NCBI GenBank assembly: GCA_017620715.1 | Contig: JAGAUN010000047.1 | Location: 3,232 to 67,231 of the forward strand | Source: Muribaculaceae bacterium | GTDB taxonomy: Bacteria > Bacteroidota > Bacteroidia > Bacteroidales > Muribaculaceae | Reading direction: 5' to 3' | DNA length: 64,000 bases | In this document: piece by piece, positions 11,522-18,946 of the stretch | How the letters are laid out: every line of letters starts with the position of its first letter | How positions within the stretch are numbered: position 1 is the stretch's first letter | Program-made: the position numbers and the translations under genes | The notes under the pieces: generated by a model | Database searches by the model: none | Seen by the model: the letters and a program-made list of their open reading frames with translations, nothing else | Told to the model about the DNA's origin: nothing

Positions 11522-12688
11522 CTATTCAAAAATGACAATCTGTTCGGGCGCGTTTGTCAGACACTGAAGCCCGTTGTCGGTCACCACGTATGTATTCTCT
11601 ATTCCCACTGCACCTACCTGAGGTATTACGAACTTCGGCTCAAGCGCTATAACATTTCCTTTCTCAAGTCTGTAAGTCGACCGAGGTGCAATCACGGGCA
11701 GTTCATTAATCTCTATTCCCACTCCATGACCTACGAAACCTGCTTTTTGCCTGTGCCCCATGAAATAGTTGTGCAGGTCGGCCTCGCGGGCGGTCTCCTC
11801 GGCCATGTGGAAAATTGCCGAAGCCTCCGTGCCCGGTTTGGCCATGGCCTCGGCCCGGTGGCAAATCTCTATAGAACACCGGTGTGCCCGCATAGCCTGG
11901 TCGGAGAGCGGCTCGGCCGCGAACGTGCGGGTCATATCGGTCATGTAGCCGGTGTAATTGCCGTTGGCATCAACCATCACCGACTCGCCGGGCCTAATTA
12001 CAGTACCATCGGCTCCGACCGGTATCGATGCATCGATGCCCCTTCCGCCCATGGCAAAATCGTAAGGGGTGGGGGAGTCGGCATTCTCGCCTGCCAGCAC
12101 ATTAGCCATAAACAATTCCATTGTATCGCCGTTGGTGCGGAACAATCCCAGACACCCTTCGAGCCTCGACAGCCGTTCAATCTCTATCTGTAGCTCAATG
12201 TCGGTCATGCCGTCGTGATAGAGTTTGGGAATCTTGCGGTACACCCGCTCCTGTTTTATTCCCGAGGCCTTGATCTGCTCGATTTCGTATGGTGTTTTCA
12301 CGGCGCGCGCCATAGCTATTGCTCCTGAGCCGTTGGTAATCTCAGCGTAAGGGAATACGGCACTCAGGCGGTTGGCTGCGGTGTAGCTCAGATTGTCGAG
12401 CTCGAGGGCTATTTTGTGTGGCTGCCCGGGTAGCTCTATCTGTTCAGGTTTGCGTATCTCCACAGCCCCTTCATGGCTCATGCCCACGGGCCGCTTCACA
12501 AAGTAAAGAGCGTCGCCCTGCACGGGCAGGTAGATGTAGCCCGTAAAGATGCGCCCCGTGAGGTAGTATATATTCACATAGGTGTGTATGAGCACACCGT
12601 CAGCGCCGGTTGCCGTCAGTTGGCGGCGTATCTTTTCAGCCCTGAGAGCATGTTCGGCCGGTGGAAGAATTACAAGTGTATTGTTCAT
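11522..12688 (-). CDS. Xaa-Pro aminopeptidase (M24 family)
   Basis: Creatinase-type N domain; GYMTDMTRT, GHGVG, ALEPK and GIENT metal-binding motifs. Confidence 0.9.
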   Translation of the reverse strand: MNNTLVILPPAEHALRAEKIRRQLTATGADGVLIHTYVNIYYLTGRIFTGYIYLPVQGDALYFVKRPVGMSHEGAVEIRKPEQIELPGQPHKIALELDNLSYTAANRLSAVFPYAEITNGSGAIAMARAVKTPYEIEQIKASGIKQERVYRKIPKLYHDGMTDIELQIEIERLSRLEGCLGLFRTNGDTMELFMANVLAGENADSPTPYDFAMGGRGIDASIPVGADGTVIRPGESVMVDANGNYTGYMTDMTRTFAAEPLSDQAMRAHRCSIEICHRAEAMAKPGTEASAIFHMAEETAREADLHNYFMGHRQKAGFVGHGVGIEINELPVIAPRSTYRLEKGNVIALEPKFVIPQVGAVGIENTYVVTDNGLQCLTNAPEQIVIFE

Positions 12689-12697
12689 GACTCGATA

Positions 12698-13339
12698 TTA
12701 TTTGGAAAGAGGAGTAAGAAGGAAGTCGGCAAGGGCGCCGAACAAGCCGAAACGGTAGTCGGCATCTGCGGCGTGCCCGAAACCGTAATCCACATATATC
12801 ATATCTATCCCGGCACGGTGTGCGGCGTCGCAGTCGCTTTGGGTGTCGCCCACATACACACAGTCGGTGAGATGGTGGCGTTGCATGAGCAGTGCTATGT
12901 TGTCGGCCTTCGGCAGGTGTGTCTGACCGTTGGTGAGAGTATCTGTGATATACTCGCCCAGTCCGGTATACTGCAGAAAGTATTCGAGACCCTTGGGGCC
13001 GCAGTTGCTCACCATATACAGTCCGAAATGTTCGGCGAGTTGGGCCAGCGACTCCCTGACTCCCGGGTAGAGCCTTCCGCCCAGGCGCGGCATGAGTTCA
13101 TCATCCACCTCCCGCAATACTTTGGTGAATGCGGCAGCATCAATATACTTCGGCGCTATCCGCTCTATAATCTTGCCGAGAGTCATGCCCATGCAGTCAA
13201 GCAGGTCGGCGCGTTTCACCTCCGCGTCGATGCCCATACGGCGATAGGTCTCGTTCCAGATGGCGGTGTACGTATCCACGGCATCCCACAGGGTACCGTC
13301 CATATCGAGCAATATGTTGCGGTAGCGATACTTGTCCAT
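12698..13339 (-). CDS. HAD-family phosphatase
   Basis: LLDMDGTL motif I, VSN, K, and VGDTQSD motif IV. Confidence 0.9.
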   Translation of the reverse strand: MDKYRYRNILLDMDGTLWDAVDTYTAIWNETYRRMGIDAEVKRADLLDCMGMTLGKIIERIAPKYIDAAAFTKVLREVDDELMPRLGGRLYPGVRESLAQLAEHFGLYMVSNCGPKGLEYFLQYTGLGEYITDTLTNGQTHLPKADNIALLMQRHHLTDCVYVGDTQSDCDAAHRAGIDMIYVDYGFGHAADADYRFGLFGALADFLLTPLSK

Positions 13340-13346
13340 GTCCGGT

Positions 13347-13796
13347 TTATTTAGCTATCACTCCAATCCGTGTGATACCCTTAAGGGTATCGGCACGCAT
13401 CACGTGTCTGATAGTAACATGCGACCCGTCCTTAGGGTTCACCCCGTCACATGCCTGCGCTTCAACTTGATACGATGTGCCTATGCCGTGCCCCTGCCAC
13501 TTGCCGTAGCGGTCGGCCAGGGTGAGGCCCACGGTGTCGCGCACGCATTCTGCGGAGTCGCGGTAAGTCACTTCGAGCCACAGATTGCTATAGGGGTAAT
13601 CGTCGGAATGCGACACTGCCACATATAGTCGTCGGGCGGCGGTGCTGTCGAGGGAGGAGAGTGTAAAGCCTATCGAATCGGTATAGGCAAGCCTCTCAGC
13701 GGGGAGCGCGTAAAATTCACCCGCGGCCTTATGATGGTCGGAGCAACCTGTGAGCAGCGCATATGCCGTTACCGCAACCCAAATCAAATGTTTCAT
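13347..13796 (-). CDS. gldH: GldH-family lipoprotein
   Basis: Lipobox LLTGC, YPYSNLWLEV, LADRYGKWQGHG and HVMRADTLKGI. Follows the PSP1 gene as is usual in Bacteroidetes. Confidence 0.85.
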   Translation of the reverse strand: MKHLIWVAVTAYALLTGCSDHHKAAGEFYALPAERLAYTDSIGFTLSSLDSTAARRLYVAVSHSDDYPYSNLWLEVTYRDSAECVRDTVGLTLADRYGKWQGHGIGTSYQVEAQACDGVNPKDGSHVTIRHVMRADTLKGITRIGVIAK

Positions 13797-13805
13797 GACG
13801 AATGA

Positions 13806-15065
13806 TTATGATTGCTGTTGCTGATTGTCGGCCGGCTTTCGGCGGTCGCGGCGGTCGCGCCGCTGCTTGTCGCGTTGCGGTTTGTCACCGCGTGGCTGTG
13901 TCTCGGTATTCTGTGCTGTGGCGTCAGGCGATTCCTCTTTGGTGCCGCGCTTTTTCTTGCGGTTGCGTTTCTTCTTGGCGTTGTCGAAGCGCGATATATT
14001 GTCCTGGTCGAGGAGGTCGGCATACGGGCCTTTCTCCTGTTTCGGCTGCTCGTCATCGCGCAGAAGCGACTCGGGCTTGCGCCCCTCCTTGTTCATCGCT
14101 ATCACCTCAAATGCACGGCGTGCGTCGATGGTGACAAGATTGGCCGGTATCGACTTGTCGGTACTGTATGTAACCAGACCTTTAAACACATCGTGCTTGA
14201 AGTGAAAGTAGGTATTGTCTGCCGTCTCAAGCCGTACCTCTTTCGGGGGGAGCTTTTTCACAGCCTCTACGTAGGCGTCTACCTCATAGTTGAGGCAGCA
14301 CTTCAGCTTTGCGCATTGGCCGGCCAGTTTCTGGGGATTGAGCGATATATCCTGAAAGCGTGCGGCTGCCGTACCCACACTCACGAACGATGTGAGCCAG
14401 GTGGCGCAACACAACGGGCGTCCGCACGGGCCGATACCACCTATGCGGCCGGCTTCCTGTCGGGCACCTATCTGTTTCATCTCTATGCGCACCTTGAATA
14501 CGTCGGCGAGCACCTTGATGAGCTGGCGGAAGTCGACACGCTCGTCGGCTATGTAGTAGAAGATTGCCTTGTAACCGTCGCCCTGATATTCCACGTCGCC
14601 GATTTTCATCTTGAGCTTGAGATCTTCGGCTATCTGGCGGGCGCGTATCATGGTGTCGTTTTCTTTCGCCTTAGCCTCGCGGTATCGTTCGAGGTCGGCG
14701 GTGCGCGCCTTGCGGAGCACGCGCTTGAATTCGGCATCGGGCTTAACTCCGGCCTTGGCCATCTGGCGTCGTACCAGCGGCCCGGTGAGCGATACCGTGC
14801 CTATATCGTAGCCCGGGGCGGTCTCCACGGCCACCATGTCGCCTTTGGCGAGGTCGATATGCAGAGAGTTGCGGTAATACCCCTTGCGGGTATTCTTAAA
14901 CTGCACCTCCACGATATCGCACTCCTGCCCGGCGCCTATGGGAGTGTCGGCCAGCCAGTCGTAGCAGTCGAGATTGCCGCGCGGCGCCTCACCGCAACCG
15001 TTGCAGCAGCCTCCGCAATCACCGGCCTTGTTGCACGAAGTCTTTTCGTTTTCCTTCGGTTCCAT
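13806..15065 (-). CDS. ricT: PSP1-domain RicT/YaaT-like Fe-S protein
   Basis: RVDFRQLIK, RIEMKQIGARQEA, GPCGRPLCC and GQCAKLKCCLNYE. Also a Cys-rich N-terminus and a basic C-tail. Confidence 0.88.
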   Translation of the reverse strand: MEPKENEKTSCNKAGDCGGCCNGCGEAPRGNLDCYDWLADTPIGAGQECDIVEVQFKNTRKGYYRNSLHIDLAKGDMVAVETAPGYDIGTVSLTGPLVRRQMAKAGVKPDAEFKRVLRKARTADLERYREAKAKENDTMIRARQIAEDLKLKMKIGDVEYQGDGYKAIFYYIADERVDFRQLIKVLADVFKVRIEMKQIGARQEAGRIGGIGPCGRPLCCATWLTSFVSVGTAAARFQDISLNPQKLAGQCAKLKCCLNYEVDAYVEAVKKLPPKEVRLETADNTYFHFKHDVFKGLVTYSTDKSIPANLVTIDARRAFEVIAMNKEGRKPESLLRDDEQPKQEKGPYADLLDQDNISRFDNAKKKRNRKKKRGTKEESPDATAQNTETQPRGDKPQRDKQRRDRRDRRKPADNQQQQS

Positions 15066-15071
15066 CGGCCG

Positions 15072-16616
15072 TTATTTTGCGAAACTTACCGAGCGGGTCT
15101 CACGTATTACCGTAATCTTCACCTGGCCCGGATATGTCATTTCGTCCTGAATACGTTTTGCTATTTCGGCCGACAGCTTTTCGGTCTCGGCATCGTCAAT
15201 CTTGTCGGCGCCCACTATCACGCGAAGCTCGCGGCCTGCCTGTATGGCGTAGGTCTTTATCACGCCGGGATATGAGAGAGCAAGCTGCTCGAGGTCGTTG
15301 AGGCGTTTGATATAAGCCTCAACCATCTCGCGGCGTGCGCCGGGGCGTGCGCCCGAAATGGCGTCGCACACCTGTACGATGGGAGCCAGGAGCGAGGTCA
15401 TCTCAGTCTCGTCGTGGTGAGCACCTATGGCATTGCATATCTCCGGTTTCTCCTTATACTTCTCGGCCAGCTTCATGCCGAGGAGTGCATGCGGCAGTTC
15501 GGGCTCTTCGTCGGGCACCTTGCCTATGTCGTGAAGCAGGCCGGCGCGACGTGCTTTTTTCGGATTCAGACCTAATTCCGAAGCCATCACGGCACAGAGG
15601 TTGGCAGTCTCGCGCGAGTGCTGCAGCAGGTTCTGACCGTAGCTCGAACGGTATTTCATCTTGCCTACAAGGCGCACCAGCTCGGGATGCAGACCATGTA
15701 TGCCTAAGTCGATGGTGGTGCGTTTGCCGGTCTCAATTATTTCCTCCTCTATCTGGCGGCGTACCTTGGCCACCACCTCTTCGATGCGGGCCGGATGTAT
15801 ACGTCCGTCGTTAACAAGTTGATGCAATGCCAGACGGGCAATCTCGCGGCGCACAGGGTCGAAGCCCGAAAGCACTATGGCCTCGGGAGTGTCGTCAACT
15901 ATTATCTCGATGCCTGTGGCGGCTTCGAGTGCACGTATGTTGCGGCCCTCGCGACCAATTATGCGTCCCTTTATCTCGTCGGAGTCGATCTGGAACACAG
16001 TTACCGAGTTTTCGATGGCGGTTTCGGTAGCCACTCGCTGTATCGACTGTACCACAATGCGCTTGGCCTCCTTGTTGGCTGTGAGCTTGGCCTCGTCCAT
16101 TATCTCGTTGATGTAGCTCTGAGCGGCTGTCTTGGCCTCATCTTTGAGCGACTCTACAAGTTTCTCCTTTGCTTCCTCGCACGAGAGCCCCGATACTCGC
16201 TCGAGCTCCTCCTGAGCCTTCACTTTGAGATGATCGAGCTCCTCCTGACGTGCCTGAGTAGCCGATAGCTGCTCGTTTAGGCGCATCTGCTGCTGCTCTA
16301 TGTCGTTGCGCATGCGCTGGTTTTCGCTCTGCTGCTGGTTGAGCTGAAGCTCGCGCTGCTTTATCTGGCCTTCGCGCGACTGTATCTTCGACATGCGCTG
16401 GCTTATGGCCTTGTCGGCTTCGGCAGCCTTGCGCACGCGCTCCTGCTCCGCTTCGAGCTGCGACTTCTGTTTCATTACCTCGGCTTCGTTGCGGGCCTCT
16501 TCCACTATGATGCGGGCGCGGCTCTGGGCCATGTTGCGTTGGGTTATGATAGTGGCGATTATGCCAATAGCCAGGGCTATCACGGCCGTAATCGCTACGT
16601 AAATAAGTAGTTCCAT
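15072..16616 (-). CDS. rny: Ribonuclease Y
   Basis: N-terminal TM, coiled coil, KH domain ([12 protein letters not shown]), HD domain (LLHDIGK), [19 protein letters not shown]. Confidence 0.97.
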
Positions 16617-16684
16617 ATCAGATTCGATTTAGTATGTTAAAGTTGATGTGTCAAAAAAATTTATTCTCGGATTACTTGATTGCT

Positions 16685-16806
16685 AAAAACAAAAACACCC
16701 GCTTCAATCTCGATTTCTGAGTTCCCGCCGTGAGGGGTTGGATGCTCATTTCAGTCGATATTGAACGGGATACCTCATCGCAGCGGCTCTCTTGCCGTCA
16801 TGCGAT
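16685..16806 (-). ncRNA. Structured intergenic RNA between zapA and rny (6S-like remnant or attenuator)
   Basis: A 72-nt imperfect hairpin (16698-16769) with an A-rich internal loop, followed by a U-tract, plus a second hairpin at 16777-16806. It sits at the zapA-adjacent position used by 6S RNA in many bacteria. Confidence 0.45.
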
Positions 16807-16835
16807 TTCTAAACAGTATGCAACAGATTGATATA

Positions 16836-17132
16836 TTACGACATACGCTCCAGTAGGGCGTCGAGCTGCGTGTCAAACGTGTCAAGCGCATTCTCAACTT
16901 CCTTGGCTTGCGCCGACATCGACAGATAGCCGCGGGCAAACAATAGCGTCACCTTAGCCAGTACCTCCTCGGGGGTGCTCCCCGCAAAACGGCTTTTGTA
17001 GGTCTTGTACACTTTGTTGACCTCCTTGGTCACATCGCGCAAAAACTCCTCGTCGGCCGGATTTATCGTAAGGCTCAGTTTGGTTTCGCCTATCCGAAGA
17101 TTTATGTCGAGTTTATCTCTCATTGCATTCAT
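16836..17132 (-). CDS. zapA: Cell division protein ZapA
   Basis: INLRIG..LSLTI...DEEFLR pattern with a C-terminal coiled coil; synteny with rny. Confidence 0.8.
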   Translation of the reverse strand: MNAMRDKLDINLRIGETKLSLTINPADEEFLRDVTKEVNKVYKTYKSRFAGSTPEEVLAKVTLLFARGYLSMSAQAKEVENALDTFDTQLDALLERMS

Positions 17133-17422
17133 TGGGTGAGTTCATCGATGCATTTGTCGATGTCCCGCACTAATTCGGCCAAATATGCCCGGCTACGAGC
17201 CACATCATCGCCTTTGGGTGAAAGCGTGGTCACTACCCGCAGTTCCTCCGCTTCAACCTTAAGCCGCTCATTGAGTTTCCGCTCTGCCGCGAGCTCCCCC
17301 TCAAGGGCCGCTATGCGGGCATCTGCGTCGCTTTTGGCTTTGAGCAGATTCTCATACCTGCTCACGAGCAAATGCATTTTGCCCGTCACTGCCTGAAGTC
17401 GTTGCTGTAGAGTGCCTGACAT
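17129..17422 (-). CDS. Coiled-coil protein upstream of zapA (ZapB-like)
   Basis: All-helical 97 aa ending LVRDIDKCIDEL; overlaps the zapA start by 4 nt. A -7 box lies at 17439-17446. Confidence 0.75.
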   Translation of the reverse strand: MSGTLQQRLQAVTGKMHLLVSRYENLLKAKSDADARIAALEGELAAERKLNERLKVEAEELRVVTTLSPKGDDVARSRAYLAELVRDIDKCIDELTQ

Positions 17423-17608
17423 TTTAGCTAAATTTCCACAAAAGTAATCAAAAAATCTGATATTTCACCACTCATACAAATAAAATAATAAGTACACTCC
17501 AATCCGCCCTTGCTTGATTTGCAAAAATCGATAAAATGCATTACTTTTGTCGCCGAAATCTATTTACACATAGCAAATATCTACCAATACATCTAAAAGC
17601 ATTGCAAA

Positions 17609-18946
17609 ATGAAAGCAAGTGAAGTGATGGCCGATTTGCGTTCGCGCTTTCCCGCCGAACCCGAATATCTGCAGGCTGTAGAAGAAGTACTTAACTCTAT
17701 CGAGGATGTCTACAATGAATATCCCGAATTCGAGCGCTGGAATCTGGTGGAGCGCCTCTGCCTTCCCGACCGTATTCTGTCGTTCCGTGTATCGTGGGTC
17801 GACGATCAGGGCCGTGTGCGCAACAATATGGGCTACCGCATACAGCATTCCAACGCCATTGGCCCCTACAAAGGGGGTATCCGCTTCCATGCTTCAGTCA
17901 ATCAGTCGATTCTCAAATTCCTTGCCTTTGAGCAGACCTTCAAAAACGCACTCACCACGCTCGCAATGGGCGGCGCCAAGGGCGGCAGCGACTTCTCGCC
18001 GCGCGGCAAGAGCGACATGGAGATAATGCGCTTCTGTCAGGCATTTATCGCCGAGTTGTGGCGTCAGCTCGGCCCCGATACCGATGTGCCCGCCGGCGAT
18101 ATCGGCGTAGGCGCCCGTGAGGTAGGCTACATGTTTGGCATGTACAAGAAGATGGCGCGCGAGTTTTCGGGCACCTTTACCGGCAAAGGGCTCGATTTCG
18201 GCGGCTCGCTGATACGCCCCGAAGCCACCGGCTACGGCAATGTGTACTTCCTTCAGCAGATGCTCGCCACTCGCGGCATTGACATCAAAGGCAAGCGTGT
18301 AGCCATTTCCGGCTCGGGTAATGTGGCTACCTATACGGCTCAGAAACTTCTTCAGCTCGGTGCCAAGGTGGTGACCATGAGCGACAGCGGCGGTACAATA
18401 TATGTGCCCGACGGACTTACCGACGAGCAGCTCGACTATATCTTTGAACTGAAAAATCTATACCGCGGCCGCATCTCCGAGTTTGCCGACCGCTATCCCT
18501 GCGAGTATCATCCCGGCAAACGGCCCTGGCAACTCGCATCGTTTGATATCGCCATGCCCTCGGCTACACAGAACGAGCTCGATGGCGACGATGCTCGCGC
18601 TCTGCTTCAGGGCGGTTGCTTCGCGGTGAGCGAGGGTGCCAATATGCCCTCTACCCCCGAGGCTGTAAAAGCATTTATCGACGCACGTATTCTCTATGCT
18701 CCCGGTAAGGCGGCTAACGCCGGCGGTGTATCGGTATCCGGACTCGAAATGGCCCAGAACGCGCAAAAACTCACCTGGACAGCTCAAGAGGTAGATGATT
18801 ACCTGCGCCGCATCATGGCCGATATACATGCGCAGTGTGAGCGCTACGGCCGCGTCGATTCTTCATATATCAATTATGTGAAGGGTGCCAATACCGCAGG
18901 CTTCATGAAGGTTGCCCGCGCCATGATGGCACAGGGTATACTATAG
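17609..18946 (+). CDS. gdhA: NAD(P)-specific glutamate dehydrogenase
   Basis: GPYKGGIRFH, GGAKGG, DVPAGDIGVG, RPEATGYG, GSGNVA, EGANMP, NAGGV. Confidence 0.97.
   Translation: MKASEVMADLRSRFPAEPEYLQAVEEVLNSIEDVYNEYPEFERWNLVERLCLPDRILSFRVSWVDDQGRVRNNMGYRIQHSNAIGPYKGGIRFHASVNQSILKFLAFEQTFKNALTTLAMGGAKGGSDFSPRGKSDMEIMRFCQAFIAELWRQLGPDTDVPAGDIGVGAREVGYMFGMYKKMAREFSGTFTGKGLDFGGSLIRPEATGYGNVYFLQQMLATRGIDIKGKRVAISGSGNVATYTAQKLLQLGAKVVTMSDSGGTIYVPDGLTDEQLDYIFELKNLYRGRISEFADRYPCEYHPGKRPWQLASFDIAMPSATQNELDGDDARALLQGGCFAVSEGANMPSTPEAVKAFIDARILYAPGKAANAGGVSVSGLEMAQNAQKLTWTAQEVDDYLRRIMADIHAQCERYGRVDSSYINYVKGANTAGFMKVARAMMAQGIL

Follow-up and report, generated by a model that had tools for sequence, protein, structure and literature searches.

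The RicT protein of the Firmicutes is defined by six cysteines (Cys) spaced CX4CCX30CX4CC (Adusei-Danso et al., PMC6751060). In Bacillus, the RicT monomer carries a [4Fe-4S] cluster on C161, C166, C198 and C203, a second cluster is held by RicT C167, RicF C134 and C146 and RicA C141, and C204 of RicT has been assigned no role (PMC6751060). RicT and ribonuclease Y (RNase Y, Rny) make a stable complex in B. subtilis, the formation of which needs the iron-sulfur (Fe-S) clusters (PMC10470536), and this pair is taken as the working unit (PMC6751060, PMC10470536). Almost all Firmicutes carry RicT, while RicA and RicF are more limited there (Dubnau et al., PMC10470536). Here, we compare with these systems the rny and ricT genes of a Muribaculaceae metagenome-assembled genome (MAG; GCA_017620715.1), lying in a 64,000-nucleotide (nt) stretch of contig JAGAUN010000047.1 (positions 3,232 to 67,231), the whole of which is called the window.

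We hold, with moderate confidence, that the RicT encoded here works with RNase Y without RicA and RicF. This reading is carried by the orthology of the protein, its cluster-1 ligands, the finding of no gene of the RicA/RicF family (Com_YlbF), the co-occurrence with RNase Y across the order and the gene order, together with a predicted complex of the two proteins. The rny-ricT-gldH array itself is best explained as a predicted operon of one Bacteroidales sub-clade.

The window RicT has 419 amino acids (aa; 13806..15065, on the minus strand like every feature given below). It matches the RicT_YaaT family model NF041131 with 256.1 bits (cut-off 70) over residues 76-293 and the PSP1 model PF04468 with 103.8 bits (cut-off 27). 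Its core follows CX4CCX30CX4CC exactly, and the GPCGRPLCC and GQCAKLKCC motifs named in a preliminary description of the window are both found on translation. The first CX4CC, C214-G-R-P-L-C219-C220 (14406..14426), is equivalent to Bacillus C161, C166 and C167, and the second, C251-A-K-L-K-C256-C257 (14295..14315), to C198, C203 and C204.

None of the six core Cys varies among 94 aligned homologues, and the full spacing recurs in 232 of the 237 full-length homologues retrieved. By these sequence comparisons the window protein is shown as an orthologue of the Bacillus RicT with the cluster-1 ligands intact. From the conserved ligands alone, we infer that it holds a [4Fe-4S] cluster. A side form of the core was seen outside Bacteroidia in family code f115 (L063-L065), where C-G-C-x-L-C-C, about 37 residues and C-N-R-P-K-C-C follow one another, with one extra core Cys, a wider spacing, an N-terminus of another type (V-I-C-S-C) and a C-terminus lacking the basic tail.

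The partner gene rny encodes an RNase Y of 514 aa (15072..16616). It scores 634.5 bits against TIGR03319 (cut-off 454.35) and matches the Pfam domains RNase_Y_N, KH_1 and HD, so the equivalog assignment holds on both score and domains. The layout is an N-terminal membrane helix, a coiled coil, the KH domain (about residues 205-277) and the HD domain.

RicA and RicF were looked for with the Com_YlbF model (PF06133). A six-frame search of the MAG, window included, gave zero matches at E<=10, so the preliminary description was right that no ricA or ricF homologue is recognisable in the window. The MAG is 70.8% complete, and therefore its relatives carry the argument for absence. Extending the search to whole genomes, as had been proposed, gave no match over the cut-off in any of 101 Bacteroidales genomes, namely the MAG and 100 further ones, each of a different family code and all but two at least 90% complete. 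The same was true of the 51 Bacteroidia in a 201-genome sample of the phylum, so that the negative covers 46 Bacteroidia outside the order, and the positive controls, B. subtilis and L. lactis, both matched.

Thus RicA and RicF are not found in the order or the class, for the genomes searched and at the sensitivity of the hidden Markov model. With neither of them found encoded by these searches, the window RicT does not qualify as a member of a RicAFT Y-complex. Weak Com_YlbF rows (E 0.002-0.01) in nine Bacteroidales genomes lie under the cut-off and inside open reading frames (ORFs) of 318-1168 aa, and were rejected as chance helical matches.

Elsewhere in the phylum sample, tandem Com_YlbF genes occur in five of the 201 genomes, all non-Bacteroidia (G283, G121, G258, G278 and G279). 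Three of them have neither RicT nor RNase Y, a fourth has RNase Y but no RicT, and the fifth has both. The tandem genes in RicT-less genomes point to a Com_YlbF role independent of RicT. In the genome with both, the RicT N-terminus is of the same kind as in the relatives without Com_YlbF. Both Com_YlbF proteins of the G283 pair (L038 1429-2243) end in C-C-G, and the pair is flanked by an ArsR-like ORF and an ORF with a Cys-rich tail, each named by eye from its translation.

RicT and RNase Y are each present in all 101 Bacteroidales genomes. The 201-genome phylum sample has RicT in 123 and RNase Y in 158, with only 3 of the 123 RicT-bearing genomes lacking a detected RNase Y, and the PSP1 and RNase_Y models match the identical 6 of 14 control genomes. 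This co-occurrence pattern marks RicT as an accessory confined to RNase Y genomes.

We modelled RNase Y 26-514 together with RicT 1-345 and two 4Fe-4S clusters as ligands. The interface score ipSAE was 0.61, 0.61 and 0.63, against 0.00 for the best of three controls. In calibration, 58 of 80 solved complexes attained this mark, as did 2 of 110 mismatched pairs; these counts are only rough here, since the alignments were our own and ligands were included. The runs agree in at least 74% of their contacts, and the predicted local distance difference test (pLDDT) score of the partners is at least 73. Because sequence searches of the PDB gave no homologue of either protein, the score is unlikely to reflect memory of a solved complex.

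The modelled interface joins RNase Y 205-277, the KH domain, to RicT 32-37, 93-104, 213-226 and 255-264. On the RicT side it takes in the first CX4CC motif and residues 32-35 and 37 of an L-D-C-Y-D-W-L anchor (residues 32-38, 14952..14972), which ends the N-terminal extension and of which W37 is conserved in 90% or more of the 94 sequences. The lowest-error contacts are those of C257, to RNase Y residues 220-224. On the RNase Y side the interface includes the invariant G-R-E-G-R-N loop (221-226).

The Cys face and the D-W-L anchor of RicT are thus modelled as sitting on the KH domain, which supports a direct binding of RicT to RNase Y. The model agrees with the need of the B. subtilis RicT-Rny complex for Fe-S clusters (PMC10470536). 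The preliminary description had suggested modelling the pair, and the docking part of that proposal spoke for binding (ipSAE 0.61 against 0.00 for the best control).

For RicT by itself, AlphaFold2 (94 sequences) gave a pLDDT mostly above 90 for residues 50-340, 65-83 for the core Cys region and below 50 for residues 1-29. A Foldseek search of this model against the PDB returned nothing at E<=0.001. Its best weak rows (E 0.03-0.3) are type-II KH-like folds, RbfA (2dyj_B, probability 0.98, TM 0.56 on the target) and uS3, and part of the PSP1 core may be KH-like.

Mechanistically, RicT would bind RNase Y directly, its two CX4CC motifs and the Y-D-W-L anchor of the Bacteroidota-specific N-terminal extension resting on the KH domain, next to the RNA-binding loop GXXG. 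RicT so docked would bias the choice of transcripts to be cut, and an affinity for RNA without sequence specificity would come from its disordered basic tail. The Cys-rich N-terminal part would be an ancestral metal-binding module of the Bacteroidia with five conserved Cys, decaying in the Bacteroidales and in the MAG too. There, the N-terminal Cys would serve at most as an accessory ligand source or a redox-sensitive element and not as an obligatory replacement of RicA and RicF. The model also suggests that one and the same Cys face of RicT is used by RicAF and by the KH domain, which would explain a hand-off of RicT from RicAF to RNase Y in Bacillus.

Several points weigh against a RicT that serves RNase Y without RicA and RicF. 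Absence of Com_YlbF from the incomplete MAG is read from its relatives, and Com_YlbF proteins are small and divergent, so a very remote or a non-homologous loader is possible. The non-Bacteroidia families f116, f118, f125 and f127 have RNase Y and no RicT, so RNase Y has no general need of RicT. The prevailing synteny is holB-ricT-gldH and not rny-ricT, and the rny-ricT adjacency, going back to about one event, is weak as independent neighbourhood evidence. Moreover, the AlphaFold2 confidence is low in both Cys-rich regions, and the binding of RicT to RNase Y in Bacteroidota is drawn from one predicted model plus homology.

The N-terminal extension holds a Cys- and Gly-rich stretch, SCNKAGDCGGCCNGCG, at residues 10-25 (14991..15038). 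Its five Cys (C11, C17, C20, C21 and C24) are irregularly spaced, C-x5-C-x2-C-C-x2-C, and the protein has six Cys within its first 34 residues. The stretch had been pointed out in the preliminary description and is present, with its left end 3 nt beyond the 14994 given there. Bacteroidota RicTs generally have about 50 residues ahead of the V-E-V-Q-F-K strand, which starts at residue 51 in the window protein. Bacillus RicT presumably starts at its V-x-V-x-F-K strand, with neither an N-terminal extension nor a basic tail.

The stretch has a conserved counterpart in the class. We sampled 20 non-Bacteroidales Bacteroidia of 11 family codes without bias. Every RicT among them begins M-[GSA]-C, carries 4-6 Cys and fits one alignable motif, M-x-C-x-S-C-x(9-11)-G-x-P-x-G-C-x2-N-G-x-C-x2-G-G-C-[NS]-[KR]-[LM]-x-V-x-D-W-L. 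In an alignment (A3) of a set partly picked for this motif, C3 is invariant and C6, C16, C22 and C27 are each conserved to at least 90%. The RicT N-termini of other classes in the phylum hold 3-6 Cys in different arrangements, such as C-x2-C plus C in f123. As far as our literature searches show, the five-Cys module is undescribed.

Within the Bacteroidales the module is uneven. Among 63 family codes, the N-terminal Cys number 0 in 6, 1 in 3, 2 in 6, 3 in 20, 4 in 22 and 5 or more in 6, and what usually remains of the module is R-G-C(C)...C(C)-K-L-x3-W-L. The closest relatives of the window protein, of its own family by the named hits, have the anchor P-R-G-K-L-x-C-Y-D-W-L preceded by 0-6 further Cys, which makes a total of 1-7 with no fixed spacing. 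The seven RicTs encoded next to rny carry anywhere from 0 to 13.

The highest number belongs to the G071 RicT (L015), an expanded N-terminus with 13 Cys in repeated G-G-G-C-S units, with 0-4 in its clade neighbours. By its sequence, a stretch of this type evolves like a low-complexity repeat.

Aligning the N-termini thus gave a split answer to the question of conservation raised earlier: the Cys are conserved in 20/20 of the other Bacteroidia sampled, but they vary from 0 to 13 without fixed spacing in the Bacteroidales. As judged from these alignments, the window stretch is a degenerate local form of a real, conserved Bacteroidia module. Orthologues with 0-1 N-terminal Cys retain all six core Cys, C220 and C257 included, and therefore the retention of the core is independent of N-terminal ligands. 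With the N-terminus so variable and the core intact, a supply of cluster-2 ligands in cis is possible but not required.

The preliminary description had called the stretch RicF-like, a label that does not go beyond a likeness in composition. The module, in short M-G-C-x2-C...G-C-x5-C-x4-C-N-K-L-x-V-Y-D-W-L, has the Cys pattern C-x2-C...C-x5-C-x4-C, which differs from that of the RicF tail, C134, C138, C144 and C146.

The C-terminal tail, about residues 340-419 (13809..14048), is basic and disordered, with a pLDDT of about 45-56. Both KKKRNRKKKR and RRDRRDRRK lie within it, and the translation agrees with the earlier remark on a basic tail. All 20 sampled Bacteroidia RicTs are tailed, by 40-243 aa with K+R > D+E, and RicT is without a tail in most other classes of the phylum.

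How the N-terminal Cys are explained bears on what this RicT can do alone. The preliminary description proposed that they supply in cis the cluster-2 ligands given in Bacillus by RicF (two) and RicA (one), which with C220 would make a self-sufficient RicT with two clusters. Five N-terminal Cys highly conserved in the other Bacteroidia, where the sample has no Com_YlbF, speak for it, as do the invariance of C220, which corresponds to C167, a cluster-2 ligand in Bacillus, and the anchor modelled beside the CX4CC motifs, by which the Cys stretch would be tethered nearby. Even the low AlphaFold2 confidence of both Cys regions, modelled in the apo form, fits a cofactor-dependent folding. However, 15 of the 63 Bacteroidales families have at most two N-terminal Cys and 6 have none, the number runs from 1 to 7 at unfixed spacing inside the window's own family, and C220 and C257 are kept in orthologues with 0-1. 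Since, in addition, the spacing is unlike that of the RicF tail and five Cys suffice for an independent site, we regard the proposal as rather unlikely. At least as likely is an independent or vestigial metal site, holding zinc or a separate Fe-S cluster, or else a disordered segment sensitive to redox state, in either case unrelated to the Bacillus cluster 2 and serving anchor folding, regulation or localisation while being dispensable in much of the Bacteroidales. We give this a tentative place somewhat above the supply in cis, as 4-6 Cys in a short Gly-rich stretch from residue 3 suffice alone, many Bacteroidales have a reduced module or none at all beside an invariant core, and other classes carry different patterns such as the C-x2-C plus C of f123. 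Yet the segment matches no known fold or family, AlphaFold2 gives it no structure, and the invariant C220 would be unexplained without RicA and RicF unless it contacts RNase Y as modelled for C257.

Two further explanations leave the N-terminus aside. RicT may need loaders other than Com_YlbF proteins, the candidates being a zapA-like gene (16836-17132) and a gene for a 97-aa coiled-coil protein (17129-17422). Stable RicT-Rny formation in B. subtilis does need RicA and RicF (PMC10470536), nearly all of 98 Bacteroidales genomes have the zapA-like gene as the immediate upstream neighbour of rny, and the coiled-coil gene goes with it in several loci. Nevertheless, the upstream protein matches ZapA (PF05164, E=5e-10) and is ordinarily read as a cell division protein, neither candidate matches Com_YlbF, both hold zero Cys and so no Cys-bearing tail, and the modelled RicT-RNase Y interface is confident without a third protein; we find such loaders improbable. 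The adjacency might also be neutral, with the role of RicT tied to holB (replication) and gldH (gliding, secretion) and not to RNase Y. This is consistent with holB upstream of ricT in 19/30 Bacteroidales, 10/20 other Bacteroidia and 14/20 other-class loci, with gldH downstream in 26/30 Bacteroidales loci and with an rny adjacency that arose once or twice. But RicT hardly ever occurs apart from RNase Y in the phylum sample, the modelled complex scores well above its controls and the rearranged order is kept across six families, which together make this explanation very improbable. RicT working with RNase Y without RicA and RicF is hence the reading we retain.

As to the gene order, rny and ricT stand side by side on one strand in 7 of the 101 Bacteroidales genomes (G000, which is the MAG, G016, G049, G065, G023, G088 and G071), of six family codes. 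In the RicT tree, six of the seven fall in one clade with support 92/95 and the seventh in an adjoining unresolved node, so by this tree the adjacency would have arisen once or twice, being essentially one event. The preliminary description had taken it for a candidate trait of the Bacteroidales, and counting it across the order gave these 7/101, essentially one clade, with holB as the usual upstream gene. Kept across six family codes, the adjacency is still a useful hint of a functional link.

The holB gene (DNA polymerase III delta', by Pfam) is the widespread neighbour of ricT across the three sets of loci compared above, and gldH also follows ricT in at least 10/20 loci of the other Bacteroidia. 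Because holB-ricT-gldH is so widespread, the order in the window is derived, with rny in the place of holB before ricT-gldH. Bacillus has the order holB-yaaT as well, and its RicT acts with RNase Y all the same.

In the window, the cluster runs in the order 97-aa coiled-coil ORF, zapA-like gene, rny, ricT, gldH and HAD hydrolase gene. The TAA stop of rny (15072-15074) and the ATG start of ricT (15063-15065) are separated by a 6-nt spacer (15066..15071), just as had been noted earlier. Past ricT by 9 nt comes gldH (13347..13796), a lipoprotein gene whose product scores 89.4 bits against TIGR03511, over the cut-off of 78.7, and 93.3 bits against PF14109, so it is a GldH family member. The preliminary description was silent on this gene and on the zapA-like gene ahead of rny.

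A gap of 219 nt (16617-16835) separates rny from the zapA-like gene, the start of which is overlapped by the 97-aa coiled-coil ORF. Rfam gave zero matches over 12500-18000, this gap included. A scan for terminators found no minus-strand terminator-like site between the cluster genes, the 6-nt spacer included; the sigma-70 promoter model of the same scan is ill-suited to Bacteroidota. No record in the sequencing runs searched spans the rny-ricT junction: one RNA run gave short fragments from relatives, mostly 90-95% alike, and a host RNA run gave no match.

Of the 98 Bacteroidales genomes with a zapA-like gene, nearly all have it on the strand of rny, 300-600 nt upstream. This linkage is far more conserved than that of rny and ricT. 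A small coiled-coil gene precedes the zapA-like gene in several loci (L081-L100). The MAG has a second, weak ZapA-family match on contig C24 (211-468), of 25 bits, barely over the cut-off, in a 205-aa frame.

RNase Y is present in every sampled Bacteroidales genome, and the order includes dominant gut bacteria. RicT is universal in the Bacteroidia, RicA and RicF are not found there, and the protein has a phylum-specific Cys module and a docking anchor. These findings and the KH model together give a testable picture of the RNase Y specificity outside the Firmicutes. The graded loss of N-terminal Cys in the Bacteroidales offers ready natural mutants, and the phylum-wide five-Cys module and the modelled KH docking are the most valuable products of this study.

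A bolder form for the Bacteroidia at large is a self-loading RicT with two clusters, in which the five-Cys module and the spare core Cys would hold the second cluster and the anchor would dock the Cys face on the KH groove. We think it unlikely, a shade more so than the supply of ligands in cis. If true, the state of the cluster would directly gate the substrate choice, and the Bacteroidales would be a natural series of partial module losses.

Literature searches on RicT, YaaT or PSP1 in Bacteroidetes found no study of the protein in the phylum, which agrees with the earlier statement that it had not been described there. They also found no published model of a RicT-RNase Y interface and no paper on partner proteins of RNase Y in Bacteroidota.

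Among known systems, the window RicT is like the B. subtilis RicT (YaaT) in its PSP1 core, its NF041131 match, its CX4CCX30CX4CC spacing and its co-occurrence with RNase Y. Unlike the Bacillus RicAFT, it comes from an order where RicA and RicF are not found. It also has a 50-residue N-terminal extension, with the Cys stretch and the Y-D-W-L anchor, and an 80-residue basic tail, neither of which we take to exist in Bacillus, and its gene adjoins rny, whereas the Bacillus ricT presumably adjoins holB.

A RicT present without RicA and RicF is also like that of some Firmicutes (PMC10470536). As this has been noted already (PMC10470536), a loader-less RicT is not new in itself. The difference from those Firmicutes lies in the phylum and in the N-terminal Cys module and basic tail that the Bacteroidia RicT adds.

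Closest are the canonical Bacteroidia RicTs of the holB-ricT-gldH loci (G202 and G116). They are 45-52% identical to the window protein by local BLASTP and have the same core, the D-W-L anchor, a basic tail and no Com_YlbF in the genome, and AlphaFold2 gives a canonical five-Cys RicT a pLDDT below 50 at both the N-terminus and the core Cys loop. The canonical proteins start M-G-C-x2-C and carry five N-terminal Cys at fixed spacing, whereas the window RicT has an irregular Cys stretch, the family-specific anchor P-R-G-x-L-x-C-Y-D-W-L and rny upstream instead of holB.

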